Below, piece after piece: positions 6,958 through 60,683 of a stretch of DNA of 64,000 nucleotides. The notes under the pieces were generated by a model. It had not been told where the DNA came from. It worked only from the letters and a program-made list of their open reading frames with translations, and did not search any database. The translations under genes were made by a program, and so were the position numbers. Each line of letters begins with the position of its first letter. Positions within the stretch are counted from its first letter, which is position 1. Origin of the DNA: Mustelus asterias (lineage: Eukaryota); the NCBI RefSeq assembly GCF_964213995.1, contig NW_027590177.1, forward strand, positions 558,001 to 622,000, read 5' to 3'.

Positions 6958-6964
6958 AAATCCC

Positions 6965-7750: not shown

Positions 7751-8004
7751 ACATCAGAGGATGGGGGAGGGGGACAATAAATAAGAGGTTACACTTTGGC
7801 CTCAAATCAATGAGGACTCTGATCTCTGGGAAGGAAGGAAACCCTGGGAGGTGGGCGGGGAGGATTCACAACCACCCGCTGGAGGCCCCAACACCCCCAA
7901 TAAGACCCATTGGTTTTATTGTCAGTCTGCAGACAGGAGCTGGAGAACTGAACCCAGACAGAGGAGAGGGAGGGAGAAAACTGGGAGTGGAGGAAAGAAA
8001 TGAT

Positions 8005-17454: not shown

Positions 17455-17950
17455 AGAGACTGAGGTTTGAATCCCACTACAGCAGATGGTGAAATTTGAA
17501 TTCAAGAAAAAACTGGAATTGAAAGTCGAATAATGACCATGAAACCATTGTCGATTGTTGTAAAAAGCCAACTGATTCACTAATGTCCTTGAGCCAAGGA
17601 AATCTGCTGCCTGACCTGGTCAGGTCTATCTGTGATTCCAGATCCACAGCAGTGTGGTTGGTTGACTCTTAAAATGCCCCGTGAAGTGCACTCAGTTCAA
17701 GGGCAAATAAAGATGGGCAATAGATGCTGGTCCAGCCAGTGGCAGCCACATTCCCTGGATGTGTTGGGAAACAAATCTCCCATCCTTATCTGGTCTGGCC
17801 TAAATATGACTCCAAACTACATAGATGTGGTTGACTCTTAAAATGCCCTGTGAGATGGTCTAGCAAGCCACTCAGTTGAAGGACAATTAGGGATGGGCAA
17901 TAAATACTGGTCCAGCCAGCGACTCCCACATTCCCTGAATGAATGAAAAA
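17455..17950 (+). mobile_element. Deu-domain (SacSINE1-like) SINE with a duplicated 3' part
   Basis: gaatcccac...gaaatttgaattc...gaccatgaaaccattgtcgattgttgtaaaa...cactaatgtcctt; the tail occurs twice (17600-17760 and 17780-17945). Confidence 0.65.
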
Positions 17951-17974
17951 ATTCCTGGCGAGTCCAGTCCAATC

Positions 17975-18320
17975 CGGGAGAGTTGGTAACTGGGCCAGGC
18001 TCACAGCGCATGCGCTCTGCTGTACATTGTTCCTGTAAAGATGGCGGCCGCTAACCCGGGCCTGGAGCCGCTCAGCTCCGACTCTATTCAGTACCAATTG
18101 AAGCGGGACCGGGAACATTTTATTCTGGATTGAAGCCTCTACGGGGTATTTATGAAGCCTCCCAGCCCACTCCGCTGCTTCTATCCCTCCCCGGTCACCC
18201 AGCGGCTCCATTACTGAACCTCACTCCATTGTTTCTTTCCGGCTCCTCGCAGCTCCAGTCACAGTCCGGGCTGCGCATGCTCCGGTCAGAGCCAGGTACC
18301 GCGTTTGCGCAAAACGGTGC
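17975..18320 (-). promoter_or_regulatory. GC-rich promoter/first-exon module for ZNF locus 4
   Basis: YY1 AAGATGGCGGCC (~18038), NRF1 GCGCATGCGC (~18006) and TGCGCATGC (~18272), CCAAT boxes. Confidence 0.7.
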
Positions 18321-18508
18321 TGTAATGTGGATAGGGCACATTCTCACCCGCAGAGAATGTTGGGTAATCACCCCGCCATTCACACTGGTTTTGTTAAAAA
18401 GAAAATATGGTTTGCGATCTGAATATGATTGGTACCATTGGGCCACTATAACAAATGTATTAAATCGATTGATATGGAACTAAGGACTGATATAGTAACT
18501 AAGGACTG

Positions 18509-19654: not shown

Positions 19655-20317
19655 GTGCAGGGATCCCCGGTGGTCGTTCCCCTTAGCAACAAGTATTCCG
19701 CTTTGGATATGGTTGAGGGGGATGACATACCAGTGGGGAGCCGCAGTGAGAGGATCTCCAGCACTGTGTCCGTCTCTGTGGCTCGGGAGGGAAAGGGGGA
19801 GAGCGGGAGGGCGATAGTTATTGGGGACTCGTTAGTTAGAGGGATAGATAGGAGGTTCTGTGGCAGCAAAAGAGACTCACGGATGGTATGTTGCCTACCG
19901 GATGCCAAGGTCCGTGATGTCTCAGACCGTGTTTTCCAGATTCTGAAGGGGGAGGGGAAACAGTCACAAGTCGTGGTGCACATTGGTACCAATGACATAG
20001 GTAAGAGAAGGGACGGGGATTTAAAGCAGGAATTTCTGGAGCTGGGCTGGAAGCTGAGAGCCAAGACGAAACATGTGGTCATCTCTGGTACGTTGCCGGT
20101 ACCACGTGATAGCGAGTTGAGGAACAGGGAGAGAGTGCAGTTAAATATGTGGTTGCAGGGATGGTGTAGGAGGGAGGGTTTCAGATACGTGGATAATTGG
20201 AACACGTTCTGGGGAAGGTGGGACCTGTACAAACAGGACGGGGTGCACCTGAACCAGAGGGGCACCAATATCCTCGGAGGGAAATTTGTTACGGCTCTTC
20301 AGGGGGGTTTAAACTAA
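19655..20317 (+). CDS. LINE ORF1 C-terminal part, SGNH/GDSL esterase domain
   Basis: SGNH blocks VIGDSLVRG, VHIGTND and DGVHLN. It begins at GTG because the N-terminus was lost by truncation. Confidence 0.9.
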   Translation: MQGSPVVVPLSNKYSALDMVEGDDIPVGSRSERISSTVSVSVAREGKGESGRAIVIGDSLVRGIDRRFCGSKRDSRMVCCLPDAKVRDVSDRVFQILKGEGKQSQVVVHIGTNDIGKRRDGDLKQEFLELGWKLRAKTKHVVISGTLPVPRDSELRNRERVQLNMWLQGWCRREGFRYVDNWNTFWGRWDLYKQDGVHLNQRGTNILGGKFVTALQGGLN

Positions 20318-23211
20318 TTTGTCAGGGGAGTGGGAAAGGGAGTTGTAGTCCAGAAGTCAGTGAGGGTGGTGAGGTATTGGGGAAGGTATCAGGGTCAAGG
20401 GTGGGTACTGGTAGACAGGAAGGTGGGTTGAAGTGTGTCTACTTCAATGCAAGGAGCATCCGGAACAAGGTAGATGAACTTGGGGCGTGGATTGGTACTT
20501 GGGACTACGATGTTGTGGCCATTACGGAGACGTGGGTAGAACAAGGACAGGAATGGTTGTTGGACGTTCCGGGGTATAGATGTTTCACTAAGTGTAGGGA
20601 AGCTGGTAAAAGAGGTGGAGGAGTGGCATTGTTAATCAAGGATAGTTTAACGGCTGCGGAAAGGCACTTCGTGGGGGATCTGCACACTGAGGTAATATGG
20701 GCTGAAGTTAGAAATAGGAAAGGAGCGGTCACGTTGCTAGGAGTTTACTATAGGCCCCCAAATAGTAATAGAGATGTGGAGGAAGAAATTGCTAAGCATA
20801 TTATGGATATGTGTGGGGGTCACAGGGTAGTTGTCATGGGGGACTTTAACTTTCCAAATATTGATTGGAACCTTTGTAGGTCAAATAGTTTGGATGGGGC
20901 AGTTTTTGTGCAGTGTGTGCGGGAGGGTTTCCTGACACAATATGTGGATGGGCCAACTAGAGGTGAGGCCACATTGGATTTGGTACTGGGAAATGAACCG
21001 GGCCAAGTGTTAGATTTGGTTGTGGGAGAGCACTTTGGAGATAGTGACCACAATTCGGTGTCTTTTGTTATTGCAATGGAGAGGGATAGGGCCGTACGGC
21101 AGGGCAAGGTTTACAATTGGGGGAGAGGTAATTATGATGCGATTAGGCAAGAATTAGGGGGCATAAGTTGGGAACAGAAACTGTCAGAGAAAGGAACTAA
21201 TGAAAAGTGGAATTTTTTCAAGGAACAAATACTGGATGTCCTTGATAGGTATGTTCCTGTCAGGCAGGGAGGAAATGGCCGAGTGAGGGAACCATGGTTC
21301 ACAAAAGAGGTGGAATGTCTTGTGAAAAGGAAGAGGGAAGCTTATGTCGGGATGAGGAAACAAGGTTCAGATGGCTCGATTGAGGGTTACAAGTTAGCAA
21401 GGAATGAGCTGAAAAAGGGGCTGAGGAGAGCTAGGAGGGGACATGAGAAGTCCTTGGCGGGTCGGATCAAGGAAAACCCCAAGGCTTTTTACTCTTATGT
21501 GAGGAATAAAAGAATGACCAGGGTGAGGTTAGGGCCGGTCAAGGACAGTAGTGGGAACTTGTGTATGGAGTCAGTAGAGATAGGCGAGGTGATGAATGAA
21601 TACTTTTCTTCAGTGTTCACCAAGGAGAGGGGCCATGTTTTTGAGGAAGAGAAGGTGTTACAGGCTAATAGGCTGGAGGAAATAGATGTTCGGAGGGAGG
21701 ATGTCTTGGCAGTTTTGAATAAACTGAAGGTCGATAAGTCCCCTGGGCCTGATGAAATGTATCCTAGGATTCTTTGGGAGGCAAGGGATGAGATTGCAGA
21801 GCCTTTGGCGTTGATCTTTGGGTCCTCGCTGTCCACGGGGATGGTGCCAGAGGACTGGAGAATGGCGAATGTTGTTCCTCTGTTTAAGAAAGGGAATAGA
21901 AATGACCCTGGTAATTATAGACTGGTTAGTCTTACTTCGGTGGTTGGTAAATTGATGGAAAGGGTCCTTAGGGATGGGATTTACGACCATTTAGAAAGAT
22001 GCGGATTAATCCGAGATAGTCAGCACGGATTCGTGAAGGGCAAGTCGTGCCTCACAAATTTGATAGAATTTTTTGAGGAGGTAACTAAGTGTGTTGATGA
22101 AGGTAGGGCAGTTGATGTCATATACATGGATTTTAGTAAGGCGTTTGATAAGGTCCCCCATGGTCGGCTTATGATGAAAGTGAGGAGGTGTGGGATAGAG
22201 GGAAAGTTGGCCGATTGGATAGGCAACTGGCTGTCTGACCGAAGACAGAGGGTGGTGGTCGATGGAAAATTTTCGGATTGGAGGCAGGTTGCTAGCGGTG
22301 TGCCGCAGGGATCAGTGCTTGGTCCTCTGCTCTTTGTGATTTTTATTAATGACTTAGAGGAGGGGGCTGAAGGGTGGATCAGTAAATTTGCTGATGACAC
22401 CAAGATTGGTGGAGTAGTGGATGAGGTGGAGGGCTGTTGTAGGCTGCAAAGAGACATAGATAGGATGCAAAGCTGGGCTGAAAAATGGCAAATGGAGTTT
22501 AACCCTGATAAATGTGAGGTGATTCATTTTGGTAGGACAAATTTAAATGTGGATTACAGGGTCAAAGGTAGGGTTCTGAAGACTGTGGAGGAACAGAGAG
22601 ATCTTGGGGTCCATATCCACAGATCTCTAAAGGTTGCCACTCAAGTGGATAGAGCTGTGAAGAAGGCCTGTAGTGTGTTAGCTTTTATTAACAGGGGGCT
22701 GGAGTTTAAGAGCCGTGGGGTTATGCTGCAACTGTACAGGACCTTGGTGAGACCACATTTGGAATATTGTGTGCAGTTCTGGTCACCTCACTATAGGAAG
22801 GATGTGGAAGCGCTGGAAGGAGTGCAGAGGAGATTTACCAGGATGCTGCCTGGTTTGGAGGGTAGGTCATATGAGGAAAGGTTGAGGGAGCTAGGGCTAT
22901 TCTCTCTGGAGCGGAGGAGGCTGAGGGGAGACTTAATAGAGGTGTATAAAATGATGAAGGGGATAGATAGAGTGAACGTTCAAAGACTATTTCCTCGGGT
23001 GGATGGAGCTATTACAAGGGGGCATAACTATAGGGTTCGTGGTGGGAGATACAGGACGGATATCAGAGGTAGGTTCTTTACGCAGAGAGTGGTTGGGGTG
23101 TGGAATGGACTGCCTGCAGTGATAGTGGAGTCAGACACTTTAGAAACATTTAAGCGGTTATTGGATAGGCACATGGAGCACACCAGGATGATAGGGAGTG
23201 GGATAGCTTGA
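20308..23211 (+). CDS. LINE ORF2: APE endonuclease plus reverse transcriptase
   Basis: CVYFNARS, ITETW, GVYYRPP, GDFN, SDH (APE); QHGF, DFSKAFD, PQGSVLGP, FADD (RT). No stops. The frame is open from 20197 but the first ATG is at 20803, so the start given is the proposed frameshift site. Confidence 0.93.
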   Translation, partial: FKLICQGSGKGSCSPEVSEGGEVLGKVSGSRVGTGRQEGGLKCVYFNARSIRNKVDELGAWIGTWDYDVVAITETWVEQGQEWLLDVPGYRCFTKCREAGKRGGGVALLIKDSLTAAERHFVGDLHTEVIWAEVRNRKGAVTLLGVYYRPPNSNRDVEEEIAKHIMDMCGGHRVVVMGDFNFPNIDWNLCRSNSLDGAVFVQCVREGFLTQYVDGPTRGEATLDLVLGNEPGQVLDLVVGEHFGDSDHNSVSFVIAMERDRAVRQGKVYNWGRGNYDAIRQELGGISWEQKLSEKGTNEKWNFFKEQILDVLDRYVPVRQGGNGRVREPWFTKEVECLVKRKREAYVGMRKQGSDGSIEGYKLARNELKKGLRRARRGHEKSLAGRIKENPKAFYSYVRNKRMTRVRLGPVKDSSGNLCMESVEIGEVMNEYFSSVFTKERGHVFEEEKVLQANRLEEIDVRREDVLAVLNKLKVDKSPGPDEMYPRILWEARDEIAEPLALIFGSSLSTGMVPEDWRMANVVPLFKKGNRNDPGNYRLVSLTSVVGKLMERVLRDGIYDHLERCGLIRDSQHGFVKGKSCLTNLIEFFEEVTKCVDEGRAVDVIYMDFSKAFDKVPHGRLMMKVRRCGIEGKLADWIGNWLSDRRQRVVVDGKFSDWRQVASGVPQGSVLGPLLFVIFINDLEEGAEGWISKFADDTKIGGVVDEVEGCCRLQRDIDRMQSWAEKWQMEFNPDKCEVIHFGRTNLNVDYRVKGRVLKTVEEQRDLGVHIHRSLKVATQVDRAVKKACSVLAFINRGLEFKSRGVMLQLYRTLVRPHLEYCVQFWSPHYRKDVEALEGVQRRFTRMLPGLEGRSYEERLRELGLFSLERRRLRGDLIEVYKMMKGIDRVNVQRLFPRVDGAITRGHNYRVRGGRYRTDIRGRFFTQRVVGVWNGLPAVIVESDTLETFKRLLDRHMEHTRMIGSGIA

Positions 23212-26754: not shown

Positions 26755-29700
26755 TTACTTGTGGCCTTGCTGGTGTCTCAGCAGATGGGATGACTGAGTG
26801 AATCCCCTCCCACACACAGAGCAGGAGAACGGTTTCTCCCCGGTGTGAATGCGCCGGTGTTTCAGCAGACTGGATGAGTGATTGAATCCCTTCCCACACT
26901 CAGAGCAGCTGAGCGGCCTCTCCCCAGTGTGAATTCTCTGGTGTACAGTGAGCTGAGATGATTTCCTGAATCCAGTCCCACAGCGAGAGCATCTGAACGG
27001 TCTCTCGTCAGTGTGAATACGTTGATGGGTCACCAGTTCCCCAGAACTTTTAAAGCACTTCCCACAATCCAGGCATTTAAATGGTCTCTCGTCAGAGTGA
27101 ACCCGTTGATGGGATGTTAGTTCCACAGAACTTTAAAAGCACTTCTCACAGTTCAGGCACTTAAAGGGTCTCTCATCAGTGTGAACTCGCTGATGTTTCA
27201 GTAGGTGAGATGACTGAGTGAATCCCTTCCCACACACAGAGCAGGTAAATGGTTTCTCCCCAGTGTGGATTCGCTGGTGTTTCAGCAGATCAGATAACTG
27301 AATGAATCCATTCCCACAATCGGAGCAGGTAAATGGTCTCTCTCCAGTGTGAATTCGCTGATGTGTCATCAGGTGGTGACACATCAGGCACTGATGAAAA
27401 GTGGAACTTTTTCAAGGAACAAATACTGGGTGTCCTTGATAGGTATGTCCCTGTCAGGCAGGGAGGAAATGGCCGAGTGAGGGAACCGTGGTTCGCAAAA
27501 GAGGTGGAATGTCTTGTGAAAAGGAAGAGGGAAGCTTATGTAGGGATGAGGAAACAAGGTTCAGATGGCTCGACTGAGGGTTACAAGTTAGCAAGGAACA
27601 AGCTGAAAAAGGGGCTGAGGAGAGCTTGGAGGGGACATGAGAAGTCCTTGGCGGGTCGGATCAAGGAAAACCCCAAGGCTTTTTACTCTTATGTGAGGAA
27701 TAAAAGAATGACCAGGGTGAGGTTAGGGCCGGTCAAGGACAGTGGTGGGAACTTGTGTATGGAATCAGTAGAGATAGGCGAGGTGATGAATGAATACTTT
27801 TCTTCAGTGTTCACCAAGGAGAGGGGCCATGTTTTTCAGGAAGAGAAGGTGTTACAGGCTAATAGGCTGGAGGAAATAGATGTTCGGAGGGAGGATGTAT
27901 TGGCAGTTTTGAATAAACTGAAGGTCGATAAGTCCCCTGGGCCTGATGAAATGTATCCTAGGATTCTTTGGGAGGCGAGGGATGAGATTGCAGAGCCTTT
28001 GGCTTTGATCTTTGGGTCCTCGCTGTCCACGGGGATGGTGCCAGAGGACTGGAGAGTGGCAAATGTTGTTCCTCTGTTTAAGAAAGGGAATAGAAATGAC
28101 CCTGGTAATTATAGACCGGTTAGTCTGACTTCGGTGGTTGGTAAATTGATGGAAAAGGTCCTTAGGGATGGGATTTACGACCATTTAGAAAGATGCGGAT
28201 TAATCCGGGATAGTCAGCACGGATTTGTGAAGGGCAAATCGTGCCTCACAAATTTGATAGAATTTTTTGAGGAGGTAACTAGGTGTGTTGATGAAGGTAG
28301 GGCGGTTGATGTCATATACATGGATTTTAGTAAGGCGTTTGATAAGGTCCCCCATGGTCGGCTTATGATGAAAGTAAGGAGGTGTGGGATAGAGGGAAAG
28401 TTGGCCGATTGGATAGGTAACTGGCTGTCTGATCGAAGACAGAGGGTGGTGGTGGATGGAAAATTTTCGGACTGGAGGCAGGTTGCTAGCGGAGTGCCGC
28501 AGGGATCGGTGCTTGGTCCTCTGCTCTTTGTGATTTTTATTAATGACTTAGAGGAGGGGGCTGAAGGGTGGATCAGTAAATTTGCTGATGACACCAAGAT
28601 TGGTGGAGTAGTGGATGAGGTGGAGGGGTGTTGTAGGCTGCAAAGAGACATAGATAGGATGCAAAGCTGGGCTGAAAAATGGCAAATGGAGTTTAACCCT
28701 GATAAATGTGAGGTGATTCATTTTGGTAGGACTAATTTAAATGTGGATTACAGGGTCAAAGGTAGGGTTCTGAAGACTGTGGAGGAACAGAGAGATCTTG
28801 GGGTCCATATCCACAGATCTCTAAAGGTTGCCACTCAAGTGGATAGAGCTGTGAAGAAGGCATATAGTGTGTTAGCTTTTATTAACAGGGGGTTGGAGTT
28901 TAAGAGCCGTGGGGTTATGCTGCAACTGTACAGGACCTTGGTGAGACCGCATTTGGAATATTGCGTGCAGTTCTGGTCACCTCACTATAAGAAGGATGTG
29001 GAAGCGCTGGAAAGAGTGCAGAGGAGATTTACCAGGATGCTGCCTGGTTTGGAGTGTCGGTCTTATGAGGAAAGGTTGAGGGAGCTGGGGCTGTTCTCTC
29101 TGGAGCGGAGGAGATTGAGGGGAGACTTAATAGAGGTTTATAAAATGATGAAGGGGATAGATCGAGTGAACGTTCAAAGACTATTTCCTCGGGTGGATGG
29201 AGCTATTACGAGGGGGCATAACTATAGGGTTCATGGTGGGAGATATAGGAAGGATATCAGAGGTAGGTTCTTCACGCAGAGAGTGGTTGGGGTGTGGAAT
29301 GGACTGCCTGCAGTGATAGTGGAGTCAGACACTTTAGGAACATTTAAGCGGTTATTGGATAGGCACATGGAGCACACCAGGATGGTAGGGAGTGGGATAG
29401 CTTGATCTTGGTTTCAGATGAAGGTCGGCACAACATCGTGGGCCGAAGGGCCTGTTCTGTGCTGTACTGTTCTATGTTCTATGTAGGTGGGATGACTGAG
29501 TGAATCCCTTCCAACACACAGAGCAGGTGAATGGCCTTTCCCCAGTGTGACCACGTTGGTGTCCTAACAGATTGGATAACTGAGTGAATCCCTTCCCACA
29601 CTCAGAACATGTGAATGGTCTCTCCCCATTGTGATCTCGCTGGTGTTTTAGCAGACTGGATGACTGAGTGAATCCCTTCCCACACTGAGGGCAGGTGAAT

Positions 29701-29906
29701 GGTCTCTCCCCAGTGTGACTGCGTCGATGAGTTTCCAGGTCAGATGGATAACTAAACGCTTTCCCACAATCCCCACATTTCCACAGCTTCTCCCCAGTGT
29801 GACTGTGCTTGTGTCTCGACAGGCCAGATGATCGACTGAAGCCTTGTCCACACACACAACACGTGTATGGTTTCTCCTCACTGTGAACAGTGCTTTTTCC
29901 TTCCAT
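26755..29906 (-). pseudogene. C2H2 ZNF (locus 6), about 12 fingers, split by a CR1 insertion
   Basis: The 5' half 29485-29906 (MEGKSTVH...FTQSSHL) and the 3' half 26755-27376 (HLMTHQRIH...) join in frame; one in-frame TAA at 27133-27135. Confidence 0.93.
27386..29484 (+). mobile_element. 5'-truncated sibling of the young CR1, intact RT frame
   Basis: Near-identical to 21192-23292; ORF open to 29405; TSD aggtgg at 27371-27376 and 29485-29490. Confidence 0.97.
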
Positions 29907-33080: not shown

Positions 33081-33592
33081 TCAATAACTGGGGAATCTGC
33101 CTCCAGAAGACTTGTGAACTCGCTGGTGTCTCATTAGGTTTTGTGACTGAGTGAATCTGTTCCCACACACGGAGCAGGTGAATGGCCTCTCCCCGGTGTG
33201 AACTCGCTGGTGTATCAGGAGATCAGATGAGTTAGTGAATCCCTTCCCACACACGGAGCAGGTGAAAGGCCTTTCCCCAGTGTGAGCACGCTTGTGTTTC
33301 AGCAGGTGAGATGAACTGCTGAATCCCTTCATACACACAGAGCAGGTGAATGGCCGCTCCCCAGTGTGAAGTCGCTGATGAGTGCGAAGGTTGAACATTC
33401 GACTAAAACTCTTCCCACACTCGGTGCAGATGAACAGACTCTTCCCAGTGTGGCTGCGCTGATGTGCTTCCAGCTGGGATGGAGAACTGAATTCCTTCCC
33501 ACAGTCCCCACATTCCCATGGGTTCTCTATGGTGTAGATGTCCTCGTGTCTCTCCAGGTTGGATGATTTAATGTGTGTATATTTCAAATATC
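33081..33592 (-). CDS. C2H2 ZNF (locus 8), 5 fingers; spliced CDS or pseudogene
   Basis: Five intact fingers. The usual ATG is ATA (..YTIENPW..), but the frame is open back to the acceptor tttacag|g at 33592. Confidence 0.55.
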
Positions 33593-35313: not shown

Positions 35314-35659
35314 TAGGATGTCCTTTCATTTTCTCTGAGAGTTGGTCTGGCAAACCCAGTGTGAAATATCTTCACAAATCTTTTCTCCCGCCCTCTATTG
35401 TGGCTGGGTTCAGTTCTCTTTTGTACAGAGTGAAAATAAAATCAATTAATTATTTTCTCTCCTGGTCACTGCAGGGAGCTGCAGCTTTTTACTGGGGGTG
35501 TTGGAGCCTCCAGCGGGTGTTTGTGAATCCTCCCCGCCCACCTCCCAGGGTTTCCTTCCTTCCCAGAGATCAGAGTCCTCATTGATTTGAGGCCAAAGTG
35601 TAACCTCTTATTTATTGTCCCCCTCCCCCATCCTCTGATGTGAACCATCCTCCAGTGGC

Positions 35660-36370
35660 TGAGCCAGGATGGGGCCGTTAACCTGGGCCTGTTCCCGGGA
35701 GGGAGGGAGGGAGGGAGGGAGGGAGGGAGGGAGGGAGAAGCCCCGCAGCTGCAAACCAGGGAGCTGACAATGATTCTGAAGGGTTTGCGGATCCACAAAG
35801 TGTTTCCAAATCCTCGCAGCCACCGCCTAACGCTGACTCCGCTTCTCCGGGACAAAGGACTCTCGCTCCCGAGGTGAACAAAGCAACTGCGCATGCTCCA
35901 CATTCAGACCGAGTGTTCAACCTCCATCAACCGTACCGGACTGCGCATGTGCCAGATCGCAATGCCCTGGGGAGGGTGATTGACAGCAGCTCCGGACCAA
36001 TAGGGGGAGGGGGCGGGCCTGGAGGGCCGCCGGAAGCAGCTGGTCCTCTAACCAATCAGCGTGAAAGAGGGGCTCCAACTGAAGCATGCGCGTTGCGGGT
36101 AATGGCGACGGGGAATGCTTATTACCTAGGATCCGTAATTTGTCAGCGGAAAATCGCCGATCGGTGGGTACGATGAAACCGGCGAGTGGACGGGAAGGCT
36201 TCAGAAACAGGTTGTGCCGATCTGTAAAGTCCCCCCAAAATTTTCCGGTTACCGCATTTGCATCGAGCGGGTCAAAAATCCCCGAGATCGGCCGGAGCGT
36301 TAACAGCCTCCATCTTTATTGGGGGCAATGTGCGGCAGTACGCATGGGTGATCGCCATCTTTGTAAGGGG
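35660..36370. promoter_or_regulatory. CpG-island bidirectional promoter between loci 8 (-) and 9 (+)
   Basis: Several TGCGCATG motifs, CCAAT boxes (~35997, ~36052), a GC box, an ETS-like CCGGAAG and a YY1-like CCATCTTT. The left arm is a copy of 7519-7900. Confidence 0.72.
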
Positions 36371-36479
36371 CAATATTGTCATTGAGTGGGAGGGGCTTGT
36401 TCCCCATTGTTCAGAATGGAGACAACTTGTCCATCAAACTGCATCAACCCTCTGAGTCCCAATGTCTTATTGATGAGAC

Positions 36480-38040: not shown

Positions 38041-38880
38041 ATGGAAGGAGAAAGTACCATTCACAGTGGGGAGAAACCATACGTGTGTTGTGTGTGGGGA
38101 CGAGGCTTCATCTGATTGTAGAACCTGGAGAGACACAAGGACACCCACAGCATGAAGAAACTGTGGAAATGTGAGGACTGTGGGAAGGGATTCAGTTACG
38201 CTGAGACACCAGCTCGTTCACTCTGGGGAGAGGCCGTTCACTTGCACTGACTGTAGGAAGGGATTCACTAATTCACCACATCTATTGAGACACCAACTAG
38301 TTCACACTGCGGAGAGACCTTTTAAATGCATGGACTGTGCGAAGTGCTTCAAAAGTTCTGGGGAACTGAAGTGCCATCAACATGTTCACACTGACGAGAG
38401 ACCATTCAGGTGCTCTCACTGTGCGACTCGGTTCACACAGTCATCTGATCTCACTGTACACCAGCGGATTCACACTGGGGAGAGACCGTTCACCTGCAAA
38501 GAGTGTGGGAAGAGACTCATTAATTCATCCAACCTACTGAGACACCAACACATTCACACTGGGGAGAGGCCGTTCACTTGCACTGAGAGTGGGAAGGGAT
38601 TCACTAATTCATCCCACGTGCTGACGCACCAGCAAGTTCACACTGACGAGACTGAACTGCGGGAAGTGCAACAACAGTTCTAGGGAACTGCTGTCCCATC
38701 AATGAATTCACCCTGACTAGAGATGATTCAAGTGTTGTCATTTTGGTCTGAGTTCAGGTAATCTCATCTCACTGTACACCAGTGCATTGACACTGAGGAG
38801 AGAATGTTCACTTCCTCTAAATGTGGGAAGGGAGTCACTCATTCGTCTCACCCACTGAGAACCAGTGATTTCAGAAATAA
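38041..38880 (+). pseudogene. C2H2 ZNF pseudogene (locus 9)
   Basis: MEGESTIHSGEKPYVC..., stops at 38113 and 38119, a deletion/frameshift at ~38198, about 5 recognisable fingers and then decayed ones. Confidence 0.85.
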
Positions 38881-39386: not shown

Positions 39387-39870
39387 AAAGTTCCTCATTG
39401 CCTTAGCCTTGAACCTGCATCTTCCTCTGGGTTCTCTCACCAATTAATTGTGAGCATCAATGGTGGTGTTTTTACCCATCATTCCCCTGGTTGAGACCCC
39501 TATCCACAGCATAGGAGAGCAGTGGGCAGGCCTGGTTCTATTCTGTGTTTGGAGCATCCGCAGTGTCAGCCATGACTATGAACAGACATTTCTCTCTTGG
39601 ATCCACGATGGGTAAAGGGGGGATGGTGGGAGCAATGGATCTGGCGGGTGGACGGAGATTCTCCGGAAACATGTTGTGGAAACCGCAAACCCCAAATGAG
39701 AAGCTACCGAGTTGACACGAGGGGAATTATCCCAGTGACAAAGCTGGAGCAGGAGGAGAGAATGTTGTGAATTTCTATCCTGGATGGATTTCGGAAACTC
39801 CTTTTACAGGGGGTTAGAAGAGGAGGATTTACACACAGCAATTTCAAACTAAAGAAAGGTTCATCTCTAC

Positions 39871-42569: not shown

Positions 42570-43444
42570 TTACTTGTGAACTCGCTGGTGCCAAGCTGTG
42601 TGGATGAACGACTGAATCTCTTTCCACACACTGAGCAAGGAAATGGCCTCTCCCCGGTGTGAACTCGCTGGCGTGTCAGCAGGGTGGACGACTGAGTGAA
42701 TCCCTTCCCACACACTGAGCAGGTGAACGGCCTCTCCCCAGTGTGACTCCTTTGGTGATTAAGTAGGTTGGACACCCAAGTGAAGCCTTTCCCACAGAAA
42801 AAGCAGGTGAAGGGTCTCTCCCTGGTGTGAATGAGTTGGTGCATCAGCAGATCCATCTGGCTTTTAAAGCACTTCTCACAGTCAGGACATTTAAACAGCC
42901 TCTTATCAGTATGAACAAGTCGGTGTGTCAGTAGGTCGAATGAACGGGTGAATCCCTTCCCACACACGGAGCAGGGGAACAGTCTCTCCCCAGTGTGAGT
43001 GCGTTTATGGTTCAACAGATCATTTTTCCTTTGATAGTTTTTCTCACAGTCAGAACATTGGAAAGGTCTCTCCTCACTGTGGATTCAATGGTGTGACAGG
43101 AGGTGGGATGAGTTTGTGAAGTCTTTCCCACAGACGGAGCAGGTGAATGGTCTCTCCCCAGTGTGAACATGCCGGTGTCTTAGAAGGTGGGATGATTTAG
43201 TGAATCCTTTCTGACACACAGAGCAAGTGAATGGCCTCTCCCTAGTGTGACTGCGGTGATGAATATGTAACTCAGGTGGGTAATCAAATCCCTTCCCACA
43301 GTCTCCACATTTCCACGGTTTCTCCCCAGTGGGACAGCACTTGTGCTTTGACAGGTTTGATGAGCGACTGAAACCTCGTCCACACACAGAACATGTAAAC
43401 ACCTTCTCCCCATTGTGAACGGTGCTTTTTGATTCCATGTTCAA
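42570..43444 (-). pseudogene. C2H2 ZNF (locus 10), 10 fingers, lightly disrupted
   Basis: [14 protein letters not shown]...; a single in-frame TGA at 43085-43087 (HH*IH, CGA>TGA). The frame continues to the last finger, which is frameshifted at ~42592. Confidence 0.85.
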
Positions 43445-44159: not shown

Positions 44160-45044
44160 GTGCCACTGTACTATTGTTGCTCAGAAATAAGTTTTAGGAT
44201 TTTGGCCGAGTGATTGTGAAGGCAGAGCAGTAGACTACCAAGTCAGAATAGTGTGTGATTCTGAAGAGTAAATGCAGGTAGTGGGGTTTCCACGGACAAA
44301 ATGCCCTTATCCATGTTGGAGAAGAGGTTTGTAGTTTTGGAAGCTGCTGTCAAAGGAGGTTTAGCCAATTGCTGGTAATTCTAGTAATGTCCATGTTCCA
44401 GTTATTAATTTGAAAATTTTCTAAATGTAAATTTAATGAAAATCCCCAACAGAACTACTTTTTCTTACTTGAAACACAGCTTTAAATGGTCTGTTTGGTT
44501 CTAGATTCAGTTCCATGAGCAATGCCTTCAACTAAACAAAACCAAACTCTGCAGCTGCTGGAAATCTGAAATGAAAAGAGAAAATGTTGGAAATACTCAT
44601 CAGGTTAGACAGCATCTATGGAGACAGGAACAGAGTTAATGTTTGCAGTCACTGACGCTTCTCTAATAAAACACATACCAATAGCTGCTGTTTAACGGGG
44701 CCGTGGATCCCACAATCCCCTGTGCCCCAGAAACAGCTCTATCCATCACACACATTTCCCATTATGACAGTTCTATGTCAAGAGGGCGAGCTGTTTAAAA
44801 GTCATTAAGTTCCATTTTTGCGTGTTGATGTTCATTAAAGATAAGGATCGATTTCCCCCTCATTATGTATCAATTTCAGATACTTCGGTTGAGAATTTCC
44901 ATTCCCCTACTTTCTGGTGGATAATGAATGCCTTGAGTACTTAGATTACAGTATAATTTGATTCCTAATTTTATTGACTGCACCTCTATCCCTAATTTTC
45001 ACATCGCAGCAAAAAAAGCTCACTGTTCACAAATGAGGAGTTTC

Positions 45045-45480
45045 GATGGCGTGCGCTTTACCCACCATTCTTCGCGGTGGGGAATGTCCCCTATCCACAG
45101 CACGGAAGGGTTGTGCATGCGCAGTCCGGCAGTGTGTGGCGCATGCGTAGTGTGGATGATGGCAATGGGGAGCGACATTCCTCTGTCTCATCAGCAACCG
45201 GTAAGGATGCGGATACATGGAGGGAGGATTGGAACCGGCAGATGGACGGAGAGGGTTTCTAAATATCTGGTGAAGGTCTCAAACCTCTAATAGTAATCCG
45301 CAGGTCCCGTGTTTGCAGCTTCAGGTCTTTTTCCCGGGACGAGGCTCAGGTTAACAGCCGCCATCTTGATTCAGCAGGGAGCGGAGCGCATGCGCCGGTG
45401 TCTTGGTGACGCAACAGTGAGTGGGTGGGGCTTCAGCGTTTTCTGCTCCCAACTGGGTCCTCGTGACCGGATTTAACAGC
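45045..45480. promoter_or_regulatory. CpG-island promoter between loci 10 (-) and 11 (+)
   Basis: NRF1 motifs (gcatgcgca, gcgcatgcg, gcgcatgcgc), YY1 GCCGCCATCTTG at ~45357, donors CCG|GTAAGG (~45200) and CA|GTGAGT (~45417). Confidence 0.7.
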
Positions 45481-45547
45481 AAACTGAGCAACAGGTTTTA
45501 AACACCCACTCCCAGGCTGCAGCCAATGTTTGCAGCCTTGAGGAATC

Positions 45548-46581
45548 CATGGGCCATGTACATACTCCAGAAGTTGTTTATTCCTGTTTGGCGCAAGAGT
45601 GGTAAGGGAATTGTGGCCAAGCCATGGCTTACAAGGGAAATTAGAGATAGTATCAGATTCAAGGAAGAAGCATACAAATCGGCAAGAAAAAGCAATAGGC
45701 CCGAGGATTGGGAGCAGTTTAAAATTCAGCAAAGGAGGACCAAGGGATTGATTAAAAAGGGAAAAATGGAGTATGAAAGTAAGCTAGCAGGGAACATAAA
45801 AACTGACTGTAAAAGTTTCTGTCGATAAAGAGAAAAAGATTGACAAAAACGAATGTTAGAAACGGGAGAATTCATAACGGGGAATAAAGAAATGGCCGAC
45901 GAATTAAATTTGTACTTTGCTTCAGTCTTCACAAAGGAAGACGTGAATAATGGACCAGATGTGCTGAGAGAAACATGTTTTAGTCAGGGGCTGAAGGAAA
46001 TCAGCATCAGTCGAGAAATGGTTTTGGGGAAATTGATGGGATTGAAGGTGGATAAATCTCCAGGTCCAGATAATCTTCATCCCAGAGTACTTAAGGAAGT
46101 GACCCTGGAAATAGTAAATCCATTGGTGGTTATTTTCCAAAATTCTTTGGACACTGGAATAGTTCCTGCAGATTGGAGGGTAGCTAATGTAAGCCCACTA
46201 TTCAAAAAGGGAGGGAGAGAGAAAACAGGGAACGAGAGACCAGTGAGCCTAACATCGGTACTGGGGAAGTTGCAGGTGTCTATTATCAAGGATTTCACAA
46301 CTCGGCATTTGGAAGGCAGTGGTATAATCAGATAAAGACAGCATGGATTTACAAAAGGGAAATCATGTTTGACGAATCTATTGGAATTTTGTAAGGATGT
46401 AAGGAGTAGAGTTGACCGAGGAGAACCAGTGGATGTGGTTTATTTAGACTTTCAGAAGGCTTTCGACAAGGTCTCACATAACAGACTATTTTGTAAAGTT
46501 AAAGCACATGGGATGCTGATAATGTCTTGAGATGGATAGAAAACTGGTGAGCAGATAGGAAACAAGAGCTGACATAAATGA
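45548..46581 (+). mobile_element. Decayed CR1 ORF2 fragment
   Basis: KPWLTREI, KSPGPDNLHPRVLKE, RPVSLTS, QHGF and DFQKAFD, with stops. Confidence 0.9.
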
Positions 46582-47485: not shown

Positions 47486-48023
47486 TGACTCCAGGACAGC
47501 AAACAATGAGCATGGATCTGGGAGCGTGTATATTAGGTACAGCAAAGTGAGAATGGAGGGAGTGTGTGTGGAATGGAGATTTACAGATTTTGGGGAATGA
47601 GAGAGGAAAGAATGTTCCATGGAAACTCGAATTGTCTGTTCTGAATGTCTATCCTTTACTGATACTAATGATCTTTGTAAACTCCTTCTCCAGAATATTA
47701 GAAGGCGAGGATTTGCCTCAACTCAAGATCTGACAGAATCTGCAATTCACTTGACCTGAATATCATCGGACATTGAATCTAAAAGCAGAAATATTGGTTG
47801 TTCTGTCTGCTTCAAACTTCAATGTGATTGGAAAAGCACCGAGATGTACACACACCCAAGTGAGAGTGTTCCGGTGCACTGACTGGAGAAAGCTTTAACT
47901 CGCTATACAGCTCCACAAACACATTAGACTGTTCACAGCGTGCAGAGACTGTACAGGTGTTCTGTGTGTGGACGAGGCTTCAACTGACCATCCAACCTGG
48001 AGAGACACAAGGACACCAGCGCC

Positions 48024-48992
48024 ATGGAAAAACCATGGAAATGTGGGGACTGTGGGAAGAGATTCCAATCCCCGTCTGCACTCGAGAAACATCGACGCAG
48101 TCACACTGGGGAGCGGCCATTCACCTGCTCCAAATGTGGGAAGGGATTCACTCACTCATCGGCCCTCCTGACACATCAGCGAGTTCACACTGGGGAAAAG
48201 CCGTTCATCTGCTTTGTGTGTGGAAAGCGATTCTGTGATTCATCAGCCTTATTGGCACACCAGCATGTTCACACTGGGGAGAGGCCATTCACCTGCTCTG
48301 AGTGTGGGAAGGGATTCAGTCAATCAGCCAACCTGCAGACACACCAGCGAGTTCACACTGGGGAGAGGCCATTCACCTGCTCTGAGTGTGGGAAGGGATT
48401 CACTCGGTTGTCCAACCTGCTTACGCACCAGCGAATTCACTCTGGGGAGAGACCGTTCACCTGCTCTGACTGTGGGAAAGGATTCAGTGATTCATCCAAC
48501 CTGCTTACGCACCAGCGAATTCACACGGGGGAGAGGCCGTTCACCTGTTCTGACTGTGGGAAAGGATTCACTAATTCCTATAACCTGCTGAGACACCAGC
48601 GGATTCATACTGGCGAGAGGCCATTAACCTGCCCTGCTTGTGGGAAGGGATTCATTAATTCCTACAACTTGCTGATACACCAGCGAGTTCACACTGGGGA
48701 GAGGCCATTCCCCTGCTCTGTGTGTGGGAAGGGATTCACTCAGTCATCCAACTTGCTGACACACCAACGAGTTCACTCTGGAGAAAGGCCGTTCACATGC
48801 ACTGAGTGTGGGAAGGGATTCATTCAGTTATCCCATCTAACGACACACCAGCGAGTTCACACCGGGGAGAGACCATTCACCTGCTCTGTGTGTGGGAAGC
48901 GATTCACACATTCATCCACCCTGCTAACACACCAGCGAGTTCATAAGTTGGATTCTGTTGTTATTACTACTGTTAATCACACCCAGGACTGA
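48024..48992 (+). CDS. C2H2 zinc-finger protein (locus 11), 322 aa, 11 fingers
   Basis: GCCATGG start, uninterrupted array, acceptor ccttctccag at ~47693. Confidence 0.92.
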
Positions 48993-51059
48993 ACCATGTT
49001 CATTCTGACAGTTGGTGAAGTGGGAGAGTCGGGGGGTTTCTTTCTGCTGGACTGGCCGGTCTCACGACTTTGCTTCCAATGGGCTGATGGTCTTTGAGCC
49101 TGGGAGAGCACATTTCCACTGAAATGATTCACAAAAGCTGACAAATTCATTTAATCCTGGATAGTAAATAGTGTTTCTCCTACCACTACAGCTAGATCCA
49201 AAATAATACTTTTGTCTCAGTTCCATTGAGTGTCTCTCCAGTGCCTCCATGTCCTAAATGGAGATCACTAATTTGGCAGAGCTCCCAGTGTTGTGTAACC
49301 CTGGTTTTAAACAAGCTGAACATAATCTTCCCGCTTTTCAATTCTATCCCTCTGGAATGGAGCCCTATGTATGGGCCCCACACTTTAGGAAAGATGTGAA
49401 GTTCTTAGAGAGGGTGCAGAGGGGATTTACGGGAAGGAAACCAGGAAAGAGGGACTTCAGTTAGTTGGAGCGGCTGGAGTAGCTGAAATTATTCTCTTTA
49501 GATCACACAGTAATAGGGACAGGCCATTTGGCCTATTGAGTCCAGACCAACTCTGTAGAAAAAACATTCAGTCCCATTGCCCTGTTCTCGTGCCATAATC
49601 TGCAGATTTATTCCCCTCAAGCATCCATCCAATTTCCTTTTGATATCGTTCAGCCTCTGCTTCCACCCCCTCATATTCAGCGAGTTTCAGTTCATTATCA
49701 GGGTCTGTGATAAAATGTTCTTCCTTACATCCCCTCTGCATCTCTTCGCCAAACCTTAAATCTGTGCCACCTCAGAAGCAACAGCTTTTCTTTCTCTGTC
49801 TGATCTAAACCTGTCATAAATTTCTACACCTCTATCGAATCTATCAAACCAAGAGAAATGTTTGTCTCTTCCAAATTTCACACCTGGACATGACTGTGAT
49901 GGATTTTGTAAATTTATTTTGTAGTGTATTGGAAAAGAAGTTGCAGGCAGTAACTCAAACTAGATCTCACATCAAAATCTGACTGAGTCACTGTTCAACA
50001 GGACCTGGATATTGAGTTCCAGGTCATTACCACTCACTGTGTAAATGTTTTTTCCTCCAACCTCCTCTGTAGATCTTGCTCAAAATCTTAAAACTGTGTC
50101 CGAAGATCCTTTGTAAATCAGCTGATCAGAACAGCTTTTCTTTATCTATCTTCTAAAATCTGTTATAAATGTGTACACCTTCATCAAATCTCCCCTCAAT
50201 CTACTTTGCTCCAAGGAGAACAACCCCAGTTTCTCCAGCCTATCATTGTTGTTAAAACCCCTCATCCCTGGTATTATTCTGGTAAATCTCCTCTGCACCT
50301 TCTCAAGGGCCCTCACTTCCTAAAGTGTGGTGATCAGAAATGGACTCATGAGTTGGGGTCTAACTGGTCCCAGAGGAAACCAATGCAGGCAGGAGCATAA
50401 CATACAAACTCCACACAGTCACCAAAGGCCAGAATTGAACTGGCAGTGTGAGTCAGCAGTGCTAACCACTGTGCCAAAAGCAGGAGGTCATTGTATCCAT
50501 CGTGCTTATGCCAGCTATCCGATTAATCCCATCGCTCTGCAATTTTCTCAGCGTTTACCCATTTAAAGCCCCCTCCCTTTATCTGCAGTCACAAAGTTTA
50601 ATAATAAAACCCCAGTCTAAATAACATGTATCTGACTGACAAATGTTGAAGTGTTTGTTTGGAGCCACAAGTTTCAAGTTTGCACCTGAGCTTCAGGAAC
50701 CTTTCTGCCTGTCTTGCTTCTTGTGTCAATGACACACTGCTCTGCCCCAGATGCCATGGCACCAGTCAATGCAATATGTAAAACCTCGACTAATCTCTGT
50801 GCTCGGGGAATCCCCTCTTATACTTTTTCACATCACAAAGACTATGGAGATTGATTTAACTCAGTCATTGCCGAGCTAACATTTGAACAGACCAATTATA
50901 AAATATGTCTTTGAACCATCTGTATCCATTCAAGCCACGTCAAACTCTCAAACAATTGCCATCCCACACTCCATCCCCGGTAAAGGGAGTCAGCATTGCC
51001 ATGCCAAGCAGTGAAAACAAGGTTATCTTGACACCCAGGTGTCGTTTAGAATTCAGAAA

Positions 51060-56082: not shown

Positions 56083-56931
56083 TCACTCCCCAGTGTGAAG
56101 TCGCTGGTGTGTCAGCAGGTTAGACAATCGACTGAATCCCTTCTGACACACAAAGCAGTTAAATGGCCTCTCCCCAGTGTGAACTCGCTGGTGTGAAATC
56201 AGGTTGGATGAATCACTGAATCCCTTGCCACATACTGAGCAGGTGAATGGCCTCTCCCCGGTGTGGACTCGCTGGTGTGTCTGCAGGCTGGATGCCTGAC
56301 TAAATCCCTTCCCACACAGAAAGCAGGTGAATGACCTCTCCCCAGTGTGAGTTCGCTGGTGTGAAAACAGGTTGGATGAATCACTGAATCCTTTACCACA
56401 CTCAAAGCAGGTGAAGGAAGCCTCCCCAGTATGAAGTTGCTGGTGTCTCAGCAAGTTGGCGGAGTTAGTGAATCCCTTCCCACACACAGAGCAGGGAAAC
56501 GGCCTCTCTCCGGTGTGAACTCGCTGGTGTGAATACAGGTTGGATGACTGAGCAAACCCTTTACCACACATGGAGCAGATAAACGGCCTCTCCCCAGTGT
56601 GAACTCTCTGGTGTGTCTGCAGTGTGGATGAAACGCTGAATCCCTTCTCACACACGGGGCAAGTGAATGGCCTCTCTCCATTGTGAACTTGCTGGTGTAT
56701 CAGCAAGTGCGATAACTGAGTGAATCCCTTCCCACAATCAGAGCAGGTGAATGGCTTCTCCCCAGTGTGAACTCGCTGGTGTGTTAGCAAGATCGATAAC
56801 CGAGAGAACGCTTTCCCACAATTGGAGCAGGTGAACGGCCTCTCCCCGGTGTGACTGCGTCGATGAATTTCCAGCACCGATGGGGAACGGAATGACTTTT
56901 CACAGTCCCCACATTTCCATGACTTTTCCAT
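56083..56931 (-). CDS. C2H2 zinc-finger protein (locus 12), 282 aa, 10 fingers
   Basis: [10 protein letters not shown]... uninterrupted to a TGA in the last linker; acceptor ttttacag|g at ~57225. Confidence 0.88.
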
Positions 56932-56978
56932 GATCTGAGTGTCTTTTTGTCTCTCCTGCAGCTTTCACAATACGTGCA

Positions 56979-57061
56979 CTGGGACACTGTCACTCGGGAC
57001 TGGAACACTGTCACTCGGGACTGGGACACTGTCACTCGGGACTGGGACACTGTCACTCGGG
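56979..57061 (+). repeat. 21-bp tandem repeat x4 in the leader of locus 12
   Basis: (ctgggacactgtcactcggga)4. Confidence 0.93.
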
Positions 57062-57319: not shown

Positions 57320-58397
57320 CAATGTCTTTAAGAGAGAGAGAAACCTGGGCCAACCTTTCCAGAGTCTGCAACCTCCCTGGATTCACTTCCTTTCCCTTCA
57401 GTTGCTGCAAGTCCCCAATTTCCCCCAGAATGAGAAAATAAATGGAAAGGGGGAAACATTGATTTCCTCCCAGATGTTGTCCAGAGGAAGTTTTGAGTCT
57501 GAATCTGAACCAATCGAGTTTCCGCATTGTGACGTCCACAATGGAGCCTGCCTGAATGACCCAATAAGAATCAGTCTCTTCCGCAATTACGTCATGGGGT
57601 TCCAGTGCGCAGGAGCTCCGCCCCCCCCCCCCCCCCCCCTCCCTCCCCCTGCCCCTCCCCTTGCACATCCTCGAGCCAAGGTTTGCAGACAGCCGGCTGG
57701 CGGGAGCGAGAAGCCGCTTGGAGATTTCCCCCGGCCCGGGACTGCGCATGTCCGGGGAAAGGGGACACTGCGCATGAGCGGGGTAGCCCGCATCCTGACC
57801 TGCATACTGAGGTGTTGACCAATGGGAAGACCTGGAGGACCGGAAGGACACTGGTCCTCCAGCCAATCAGGTCTTTGTGACGCTCAGATTGAGCTGCACA
57901 CAGACTGAAACTTCCTCCTGTCTGAAGTGAGTTATTTTAGATGACATGAATCACACTTCTGAGGATTATGCTTCATATCCCAGATGAAGCGAGGTACCTA
58001 AGTATGTTTTATTCTCCAAACAAGCGGTCAGATGACATCGAACTCTGGCGGATAACTTATTTATCACTTATTTCCTTAAAAGAGGCCAACATCTCGCTTT
58101 TTCCTTTGTACTTTGATTTCTGTTCTGGCTGCTCCCCCTCCTTTTGGGGAGCTGCCCCTTTTACTTTGTCCCGATTTAATTTGAGTTTGTTTATTTGGTT
58201 TGACCTTAAAAGAGGCCAACATCTGTGAGTAACACACTTTCTCCGCCCCCCCCCCCCCCCCCCGCCCACCCCTTTCCATTTCTTTTCTCATTCTGGGGGA
58301 AATTGGGGACTTGCAGCAACTGAAGGGAAAGGAAGTGAATCCAGGGAGGCTGCAGACTCTGGAAAGGTTGGCCCAGGTCTCTCTCTTAAAGACATTG
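57320..58397. repeat. ~130-bp inverted repeat (arms 57320-57452 and 58269-58397)
   Basis: The arms are near-exact reverse complements and enclose the promoter. Confidence 0.92.
57500..57900. promoter_or_regulatory. CpG-island bidirectional promoter between loci 12 (-) and 13 (+)
   Basis: Four CCAAT boxes, CRE/ATF-like tgacgtc and ttacgtca, two ACTGCGCATG motifs and a poly-C tract. Confidence 0.75.
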
Positions 58398-59110: not shown

Positions 59111-59756
59111 AATGGTTGAGCGGACTCGATGGGCCGAATTGCTGATTGCAGCTCCTTTTAGTTATGATTTGTGTGTGCTGGGCAGGAAGCAGTGAGCATG
59201 GATCTGTCAATCAGCCTCAATCAGTACCTTCAGGAGAATTGGGAGGGTGAATATTAGATACAGCAGAGTGAGAATGGAGGGAGAGTGTGTGGGATGGAGA
59301 TTTACAGCTTTTGGGGAATGAGAGAGGAAAGAATGTTCCATAGAAACTAGAACTGTCTGTTCTGAATTTCTATCCTGCACTGACACTGATGGCTTTTATA
59401 AACTCCTTTTACAGGATATCAGAAGGTGAAGATTTACAGACAGAAATCTCAAACCAAATAACTGACAGAGTCACTCAATTCATCTGGACCTGAATATCAT
59501 CAGCCTTTGAATCTAGAAGGAGAAATGTTTCTCTGTTCTGTCTGCGAGAGAAGATTTTAAACATCAGCATCACTGGAAAAGCACCTAGACACAGACACAG
59601 TCAATTGAGAGTGTTCCAGTGCACTGAGGAAAAAGCTTTAACCAGATACACAGCCCGAAAATACATCGCAGCATTCAGTGGGGAGAGACTGTACTTGTGT
59701 TCTGTGTGAGTTTTAACTGATTGTTTAACCTGGAGAGTCACAAGGACACCCGCACC

Positions 59757-60683
59757 ATGGAGAAACCGTGGAAATGTGGGGACTGTGGGAAAGGATTCAA
59801 AGCTCCATCTGATCTGGAAATTCATCGGCGCAGCCACACTGGGGAGAGGCCGTTCACCTGCTCTGTGTGTGGGAAGGGATTCACTTTATCATCCAGACTG
59901 CAGAGACACCAGCAAGTTCACACTGGGGAGAGACCGTTCGCCTGCCCTCAGTGTGGGAAGGGATTCAGTCAGTTTTCCAACCTGCGGACACACCAGCGAG
60001 TTCACACTGGGGAGAGGCCATTCAGCTGCTCTCAGTGTGGGAAGGGATTCACTCTGTCATCCAGCCTGCGGACACACCAGCGAGTTCACACTGGGGAGAG
60101 ACCATTCACCTGTTCTCAGTGTGCGAAGGGATTCAGTCAGTTATCCAACCTACGGACACACCAGCGAGTTCACACTGGGGAGAGACCATTCACCTGCTCT
60201 CAGTGTGGGGAGGGATTCAGTCAGTTATCCAGCTTGCAGACACACCACCGAGTTCACACTGGGGAGAGGCCATTCACCTGCCCTCAGTGTGGGGAGGGAT
60301 TCACTCAGTCATCCCACCTGCGGACACACCAGCGAGTTCACACTGGGGAGAAACCGTTCACCTGCTCTCAATGTGGGGAACGATTCACTCAATTATCCAT
60401 CCTGCAGATACACCAGCGAGTTCACACTGGGGAGAAACCGTTCACCTGCTCTCAGTGTGGGAAGGGATTCACTGACTTATCCAACTTGCAGAAACACCTG
60501 CGAATTCACACTGGGGAGAGGCCATTCACCTGCCCTCATTGTGGAAAGAGATTCACTGACTCATCCAGCCTGCAGAAACACCAGCGAGTTCACACGGGGG
60601 AGAGGCCATTCGTCTGCTCTCAATGTGGGAAGGCATTCAGTGTTTCATCTGCCCTATTGAGACACCAACAAGTTCACGAGTGA
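59757..60683 (+). CDS. C2H2 zinc-finger protein (locus 13), 308 aa, 11 fingers
   Basis: ACCATGG start, [10 protein letters not shown]...HQQVHE*; acceptor ccttttacag|g at ~59413. Confidence 0.92.

Follow-up and report, generated by a model that had tools for sequence, protein, structure and literature searches.

Which role is played by a finger that stands, in a single copy, at the front of the genes of a whole zinc finger cluster? The window analysed here, a stretch of 64,000 nucleotides from the shark Mustelus asterias, holds C2H2 genes clustered in tandem and interspersed with LINE-like reverse-transcriptase frames, and we numbered its 11 C2H2 loci Z0 to Z10 by position. The locus under study is Z8, whose reading frame of 322 amino acids (48024-48992, + strand) holds a peculiar lead finger, 10 generic C2H2 fingers and a short tail. 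This lead finger (48024-48104, +) starts at an ATG with a purine at -3 and a G at +4 and carries a Trp two residues before the first Cys, a Pro at helix position +1 and a Glu at +5; we call it the W finger. It reaches 32.6 bits against the Pfam profile PF00096 and its model is a canonical beta-beta-alpha fold. A sequence-only reading had seen in it an invariant, dedicated protein-interaction module of a chondrichthyan zinc finger system without KRAB, which it conjectured to be responsive to transposable elements.

The W finger and its distribution

A DNA scan of the window gave 10 W anchors, and the eleventh, in the frameshifted pseudogene Z0 (approximately 165-245, -), was found on reading the window start. 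The W fingers of Z2 (10109-10189, +), Z9 (56851-56931, -) and Z10 (59757-59837, +) belong to a type of locus that we call A, and those of Z3 (15997-16077, -; behind an F-1 finger that lacks its last His), Z4 (29715-29795, -; second finger of its array) and Z7 (43247-43327, -) to a type B. In Z1 (8869-8949, +) the W finger has no ATG and the array is broken downstream, in Z5 (33450-33530, -) an ATA stands in place of the ATG, and Z6 (38152-38215, +) keeps half a W finger with an out-of-frame junction to a generic helix end. The finger is in frame at 9 of the 11 loci, Z6 being without the second half and Z0 frameshifted, and at least 4 of the 11 loci are broken (Z0, Z1, Z4 and Z6). In a rough bootstrap tree of 81 columns, which is not settled, all 9 intact window copies fall into one clade with a support of 100/98. 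The array of Z4 is split by a LINE-like reverse-transcriptase frame (27333-29405, 690 codons between stops); another such frame, of 1004 codons, lies at 20197-23211.

Trp, Pro and Glu occur together in 22 of 285 fingers from 22 shark-type proteins (one of them assigned there by sequence) and in none of 2560 fingers from 115 other proteins, among which Trp alone was seen once, Pro 30 times and Glu 22 times. With a score trained on the window, and with the skate left out, we found 41 W copies in 28 shark proteins. Every one of the 41 is first (30) or second (11) in its run of fingers, and at none of the 11 window loci does a W finger lie inside the array, which bears out both the claim that it is never duplicated internally and the position bias that had been expected in sharks. 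Over 273 fetched proteins, 35 W-like fingers were found at array position 1 (29) or 2 (6). When the signature positions were masked, the only other match was one mis-registered internal finger of the K type described below. The word invariant, on the other hand, does not fit the finger: Z7 has His at +5, the recognition positions vary, one of the two skate copies is without both Pro and Glu, and 5 of the 41 shark copies have lost a zinc ligand, against 29 of 320 internal fingers (p 0.57).

The W finger was found in Pristiophorus, Heptranchias, Heterodontus, two Chiloscyllium, Cetorhinus, Carcharodon, Mustelus, Scyliorhinus and the skate Amblyraja, in searches covering the best 120 of 4633 and the best 150 of 137,644 matches, mostly long zinc finger proteins. 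Because the profile and phmmer lists were dominated by such long proteins, the lack of a chimaera match is uninformative. The shark protein sets were gathered by similarity and consist mostly of Heterodontus paralogues in fused gene models. Judged from these sequences, the W finger is a real marker of an elasmobranch family of KRAB-less tandem zinc finger genes in nine sharks and one skate, and the proposed chondrichthyan system stands as an elasmobranch-wide family of this kind with a position-fixed finger. A search of the ESM Atlas returned generic C2H2 clusters only, and scans of metagenomes and viral contigs gave 10 weak loci and 1, respectively (36-82% over short pieces). The literature searched, with most subscription papers and supplements outside its scope, held no description of the W finger or its zinc finger family, and it is apparently an undescribed marker. 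As such it is simple and specific and could be used to count and annotate the family, for which automatic models are fused. Public models of Heterodontus and Carcharodon (P0019, P0063, P0142 and others) join neighbouring family members, and the number of W fingers in a model, up to four, is the number of genes joined.

The cassette and the region upstream

The loci follow a common order of acceptor-like site, spacer, upstream fingers, W finger, array and 3' edge. In Z8 this shared cassette opens with a splice-acceptor-like site, putatively used, and a decayed spacer (47694-47775, +), and from here to the ATG the frame is closed. Three dead fingers, F-3, F-2 and F-1 (47776-48023, +), follow with stops (one at 47985-47987) and frameshifts, and are presumably 5' UTR. 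The 3' edge, which is the tail after the last finger and its flank (48945-49030, +), was aligned in 10 of 10 loci. Behind the shared acceptor-like site and spacer the arrays run uninterrupted, and a single-last-exon layout is predicted from the sequence. In type A loci the dead fingers have stops in common and the reading frame opens with the W-finger ATG, while type B loci have lost two dead fingers and start 37 codons earlier; Z6 is a mixed A/B type. The statement that the W finger heads every zinc finger gene therefore holds in a looser sense: it is always first or second, standing behind a finger or relic in Z3, Z4 and Z7 and, in type A, following as many as three dead fingers. Pfam recognised dead fingers in 2 of the 3 leaders scanned (Z8 and Z10), with zf-C2H2 matching the F-1 relic of Z8 at E 1.7e-4, below the cut-off.

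As far as the search upstream was run, no known effector was found there, in line with the statement that no KRAB, SCAN or BTB is visible. KRAB and SCAN were absent by our own profiles from all six frames of the whole window and from the 22 shark proteins; the KRAB profile, made from 64 fetched KRAB pieces, matches 86 of 137 fetched proteins, 0 of the 22 shark proteins and nothing in the window under E 6, and the SCAN profile matches 38 of the 137. Upstream of the 3 of 11 loci scanned with Pfam, neither BTB nor KRAB was found, only finger relics, a reverse-transcriptase fragment and one chance-level match. The frame from acceptor to start is closed by stops in 9 of the 10 loci tested (Z2, without such an acceptor, was left out), and in these nine no upstream coding exon can be in frame with the array via the shared acceptor. 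Only in Z5 (33450-33592, -), which has lost most of its leader together with the ATG, does the frame stay open between acceptor and fingers, and Z5 is the sole locus that could take an upstream coding exon. Eight ATGs at W-finger or type B starts have a purine at -3 and a G at +4. Many annotated shark proteins begin at one of these two starts, and the longer shark models showed no common upstream sequence on inspection. A small upstream exon before the Z10 acceptor was considered and rejected, as a stop precedes its donor-like site and it is partly deleted in Z8.

The spacer has a dN/dS of 0.44 in the old frame versus 0.87 and 0.67 in the others (shuffle P 0.05, uncorrected) and looks like former coding sequence; for the dead fingers, the signal of a former coding role did not reach significance (shuffle P 0.11 and 0.26). 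In both skate arrays the leader is open and in frame (P0205, residues 56-98 and 565-609). These skate leaders match a Heterodontus leader with E 6e-5 and 4e-5 among 273 proteins and the window leaders weakly (best E 0.03), and the leader is also open in some shark models. Since the skate leader is open in frame and the spacer resembles old coding sequence, the ancestral W finger probably had an internal position. The short leader is acidic and polar in character, decayed in the window (47694-47775 and homologous spacers) and open in skate; it may be an ancestral N-terminal peptide and an alternative candidate for an effector.

Selection, fold and array turnover

Pooled pairwise estimates over 8 loci, from small samples of paralogues that are not independent, gave dN 0.19, a high and noisy dS of 0.84 and dN/dS 0.23 (0.10-0.44) for the W finger, and dN 0.24, dS 0.56 and dN/dS 0.42 (0.22-0.77) for the next finger. 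The corresponding values for 52 generic fingers are 0.22, 0.53 and 0.41 (0.23-0.66), the dN/dS of a class of internal fingers that we call R is 0.26, and at the core sites of the W finger it is 0.04. The W finger is under purifying selection. A clearly stronger constraint than on the next finger is not seen: the intervals overlap, so that the slower evolution expected relative to internal fingers did not emerge. Compared with flanking non-coding DNA the outcome is divided. At codon positions 1 and 2 of six loci the divergence is 0.19 in the W finger, 0.22 in the next finger (W+1), 0.27 in the one after (W+2) and 0.39 in the spacer, and amino-acid-changing sites thus evolve at about half the spacer rate; total nucleotide divergence, however, is not lower (0.24-0.31 in the W finger, 0.26-0.27 in the dead leader). 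Intact W fingers show no indels; in the leader, gaps open about 2.5 times per 100 nt.

At individual residues the W finger is less variable than its neighbour. In the sharks Glu+5 is kept in 35 of 36 copies, Pro+1 in 33 of 36 and an Asp between the Cys in 35 of 36. With the signature sites masked for classification, these residues were still found in 24, 23 and 25 of 26 matches (one of which is the mis-registered internal finger), while at the same three sites of the next finger the commonest residue reaches only 14, 14 and 16 of 26. Measured against the dead leader as a neutral control the excess is modest: Asp, Pro and Glu are kept in 36 of 39 cases versus 68 of 91 for the dead leader motif (p 0.03) and 32 of 39 for its last-aligned part (p 0.31). 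Among the recognition positions, identity at -1, 3 and 6 is 0.39 in the W finger and 0.22 in the next finger, and the entropy at -1, +2 and +6 is 1.36, 1.03 and 1.65 versus 2.50, 1.32 and 2.31; position +3 of the W finger varies widely. Contact sites have pooled pairwise dN/dS values of 0.88 in generic fingers, 1.10 in the R class and 0.39 in the W finger, none of them demonstrably above 1, and dN at contact positions in the window is 0.56 in the W finger and 0.61 in generic fingers.

The predicted fold is that of an ordinary C2H2 finger. PF00096 matches 4 of 4 W fingers above its cut-off (28.6-34.0 bits versus 25.2), and in the AlphaFold2 model, canonical and with a mean pLDDT of 90.3, the predicted helix spans residues 17-28 and starts at the Pro. 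A suspected likeness to ubiquitin-binding fingers found no support in Pfam: none of the 4 W fingers matches PF18439 at E 0.05, although 2 of 4 internal fingers match this profile weakly, and no other special finger family in Pfam matches any of the 4. Trp stands where 270 of 274 internal fingers have the usual Phe and is kept in part because no single base change in the genetic code takes Trp to Phe or Tyr. The first helical turn is a favoured place for Pro, which occurs at +1 in 2 of the 11 fingers of the solved structure of ZFP568, which we take to be DNA-bound. Helix position +5 faces away from the bases. A canonical linker joins the W finger to the next finger.

The geometry of the arrays bears directly on the fixed position. 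In Z8-Z10 the W unit has 52% DNA identity to its own array, compared with 74-79% among internal units, whereas between these loci W units are 79% and internal units of the same rank 74-84% identical. The longest in-register exact run shared with generic fingers averages 10.8 nt for the W unit and 20.4 nt for internal units. Divergence alone does not set the W unit apart: a K class of fingers is about as divergent (56% vs 54%) and yet is repeated inside 4 of the 5 loci that have it, and the R class occurs three times in Z3. The stems of the K and R clades (0.47 and 0.42) are as long as that of the W clade (0.46), and the 3' edge is common to all 10 aligned loci; the downstream fingers therefore do not vary freely, contrary to what had been stated. 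The K-then-R pair was found at 10445-10609, 15157-15321, 15661-15825, 26929-27093 and 38309-38473, that is in four loci with a duplication in Z3, and amino-acid identity is higher in the R class (0.83) than in any other class.

Taken together, the evidence tips somewhat towards the W finger being a frozen 5' edge unit of a last-exon cassette that was duplicated whole in sharks and skates, with the role of a cap or low-specificity anchor. For this we observed a shared cassette, a distinct finger class, a fixed position, purifying selection and a canonical fold in prediction; against it, the helix residues are more constant in the W finger than in the next one. The W finger would once have been internal, the leader and upstream fingers would have decayed or been deleted, and translation would now begin at the ATG directly ahead of the W finger in type A and 37 codons before that in type B. 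If the arrays turn over through unequal exchange of 84-bp units, a recombination process that we infer and did not observe, the W unit could be skipped, being too divergent and lacking a generic unit 5' of it, where its only neighbour is a dead or divergent unit. The equally divergent K and R fingers, lying between generic units, would be carried along. This barrier is not absolute, since F-1 is 58-67% identical to generic fingers. Edge position and divergence would thus account for the lack of internal duplicates without any special function. In the protein the W finger may form a zinc-bound cap or low-specificity anchor in front of a DNA-binding array, and selection on fold and frame may maintain it just as it maintains the next finger, Trp standing in the Phe/Tyr slot and Pro opening the helix. 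An in-frame loss of the W finger from an otherwise intact array was not encountered.

It is rather unlikely, in our view, that the W finger is a partner-binding effector module which replaces an N-terminal domain and recruits a co-repressor or mediates oligomerisation. The surface required would be a constant acidic and aromatic one made of the inter-Cys Asp, Tyr-1, Pro+1, Glu+5 and Arg+9. A partner-binding role keeps some weight because helix positions +1 and +5 are unusually constant, more so than in the next finger, as is the inter-Cys Asp. It would also agree with the single W copy per gene, always first or second and retained in nine sharks and one skate, with the absence of KRAB, SCAN and, in 9 of 10 loci, of in-frame entry from the acceptor, with the drop in constraint from W to W+2, and with the existence of protein-binding C2H2 fingers (cited in PMC8455134). 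However, Glu+5 is missing in Z7 and in one of the two skate copies, zinc ligands are lost as often as in internal fingers, overall constraint is indistinguishable from that of the next finger (0.19 vs 0.22), none of the 4 W fingers matches a special finger family, the fold is canonical, and the position can be explained without function. The claim of a dedicated protein-interaction module is unsupported on these grounds, and the fixed position follows from array geometry. An evolutionary course in which elasmobranchs built a tandem zinc finger system without KRAB or FiNZ, using a formerly internal W finger that became N-terminal after leader decay and now recruits a silencing partner, is conceivable and on the whole improbable.

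Less probable still is a constant DNA-reading anchor, in which Tyr/Ser-1, Ser+2, Glu/Gln+3 and Thr/Ile+6 would read a shared sub-site and the array would add specificity; the lower diversity at -1, +2 and +6 across species than in W+1, the canonical linker and the Pro+1 of ZFP568 fingers fit it, but contact-position dN in the window equals that of generic fingers and +3 varies widely. We give equally little credence to a family of mostly decaying duplicates with little current function, in which conservation would reflect only shallow divergence and slow shark substitution. The broken loci, the W divergence no lower than that of the dead leader, the dead-leader residues kept at 75-82% and the orphan leader relics in the window point that way; they are opposed by a dN/dS of 0.23 with an interval below 1, by the core-site value, by W fingers free of indels next to a leader full of gaps, and by the good start-codon context at 8 ATGs. 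That the real effector lies upstream, in an unseen coding exon or the acidic leader, spliced by another acceptor so that the W finger is merely the first finger after it, appears very improbable: stops separate acceptor and start in 9 of 10 loci, many shark proteins start at the W finger or type B start, longer models share nothing upstream, and no KRAB or SCAN was found. What speaks for it is the coding-like spacer (with the uncorrected P of 0.05), the leader open in both skate arrays and some shark models, the open frame of Z5, albeit without ATG, and the precedent of FiNZ, an upstream exon of 28 amino acids without Pfam-like similarity according to PMC10547256, because of which a profile scan could miss a domain of this kind.

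Known systems and further features of the window

KZNF clusters consist of tandem, often divergent genes with variable contact residues and frequent pseudogenes. The shark family shares all this with tetrapod KZNFs, as well as a predicted last-exon array behind a spacer, but is without KRAB and SCAN, has, in 9 of 10 loci, a spacer that is out of frame with the array, and is marked by a finger instead of an upstream domain. Protein-binding C2H2 fingers include the Ikaros, FOG and GLI/Zap1 types, the last with a Trp between the Cys. With these and with UBZ fingers the W finger has in common the C2H2 fold, constant surface residues and a Trp; it differs from them in giving no UBZ match and in having its Trp before the first Cys, in the aromatic slot.

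Wells et al. 2023 (PMC10547256) describe KZNF and FZNF genes with the whole array in one last exon behind a spacer, and FiNZ as an acidic peptide encoded by a separate upstream exon, in a family called cyprinid-specific for which knock-downs give evidence of repression of transposable elements. Cyprinid FiNZ-ZNFs and the shark genes are alike as lineage-restricted expansions of KRAB-less tandem zinc finger genes with a shared N-terminal signature. In the shark a zinc finger, lying within the predicted last exon and known from sequence alone, serves as this signature; the decayed acidic leader would be the nearer analogue of FiNZ, a likeness by description only. The text of Wells et al. has no mention of sharks, chondrichthyans, cartilaginous fishes or skate, and its supplements, which list zinc finger gene counts per genome, may include sharks. 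PRDM9 arrays, as described in PMC3890296 and PMC5048142, have conserved ends, a distinct first finger in a clade by itself, dead fingers upstream of the functional array (in tarsier) and the highest turnover in mid-array. The distinct conserved first finger, the dead fingers 5' of the array and the turnover concentrated in mid-array recur in the shark, a likeness of pattern only, since PRDM9 is a single gene with KRAB and PR/SET and the shark pattern is repeated over a multigene family. KRAB-box families were lost in the cartilaginous lineage according to the whale shark paper (PMC8455134). The W finger bears on how cartilaginous fishes use many tandem zinc finger genes without KRAB: were it an effector, KRAB and FiNZ would be joined by a third independent solution, and if it is only a frozen edge, it would illustrate cleanly, over a multigene family, how the ends of arrays escape repeat turnover.

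Several further features were noted around the loci. A CpG-rich promoter-like island lies between the divergent Z7 and Z8 (45000-45600, no strand assigned), with donor-like sites at 45198 and 45415 and with what we presume to be YY1 and NRF1 motifs; an ATG frame in it that runs up to a donor-like site could, for Z8, be nothing more than an upstream ORF. Similar islands at 1650-1950, 6750-7900, 17850-18450, 35400-36450 and 57450-57900 also lie mostly between divergent zinc finger loci, the stretches 7519-7903 and 35489-35903 are 89% identical, and 7211-7469 holds 4.3 copies of a 60-bp CCAAT/GC-box unit. Orphan cassette fronts with no W finger or array behind them, consisting of acceptor and spacer and in one case a dead finger, occur at 17000-17200 (-), 39780-39860 (+) and 49880-50030 (+). 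The approximately 170 nt before the acceptor, compared between Z8 (47519-47693) and Z10 (59240-59414), diverge by about 0.15 over the aligned part, less than the spacer, and are possibly a splicing or regulatory element. In Z9, part of the dead-finger leader is replaced by four copies of a 21-bp unit (56978-57061).
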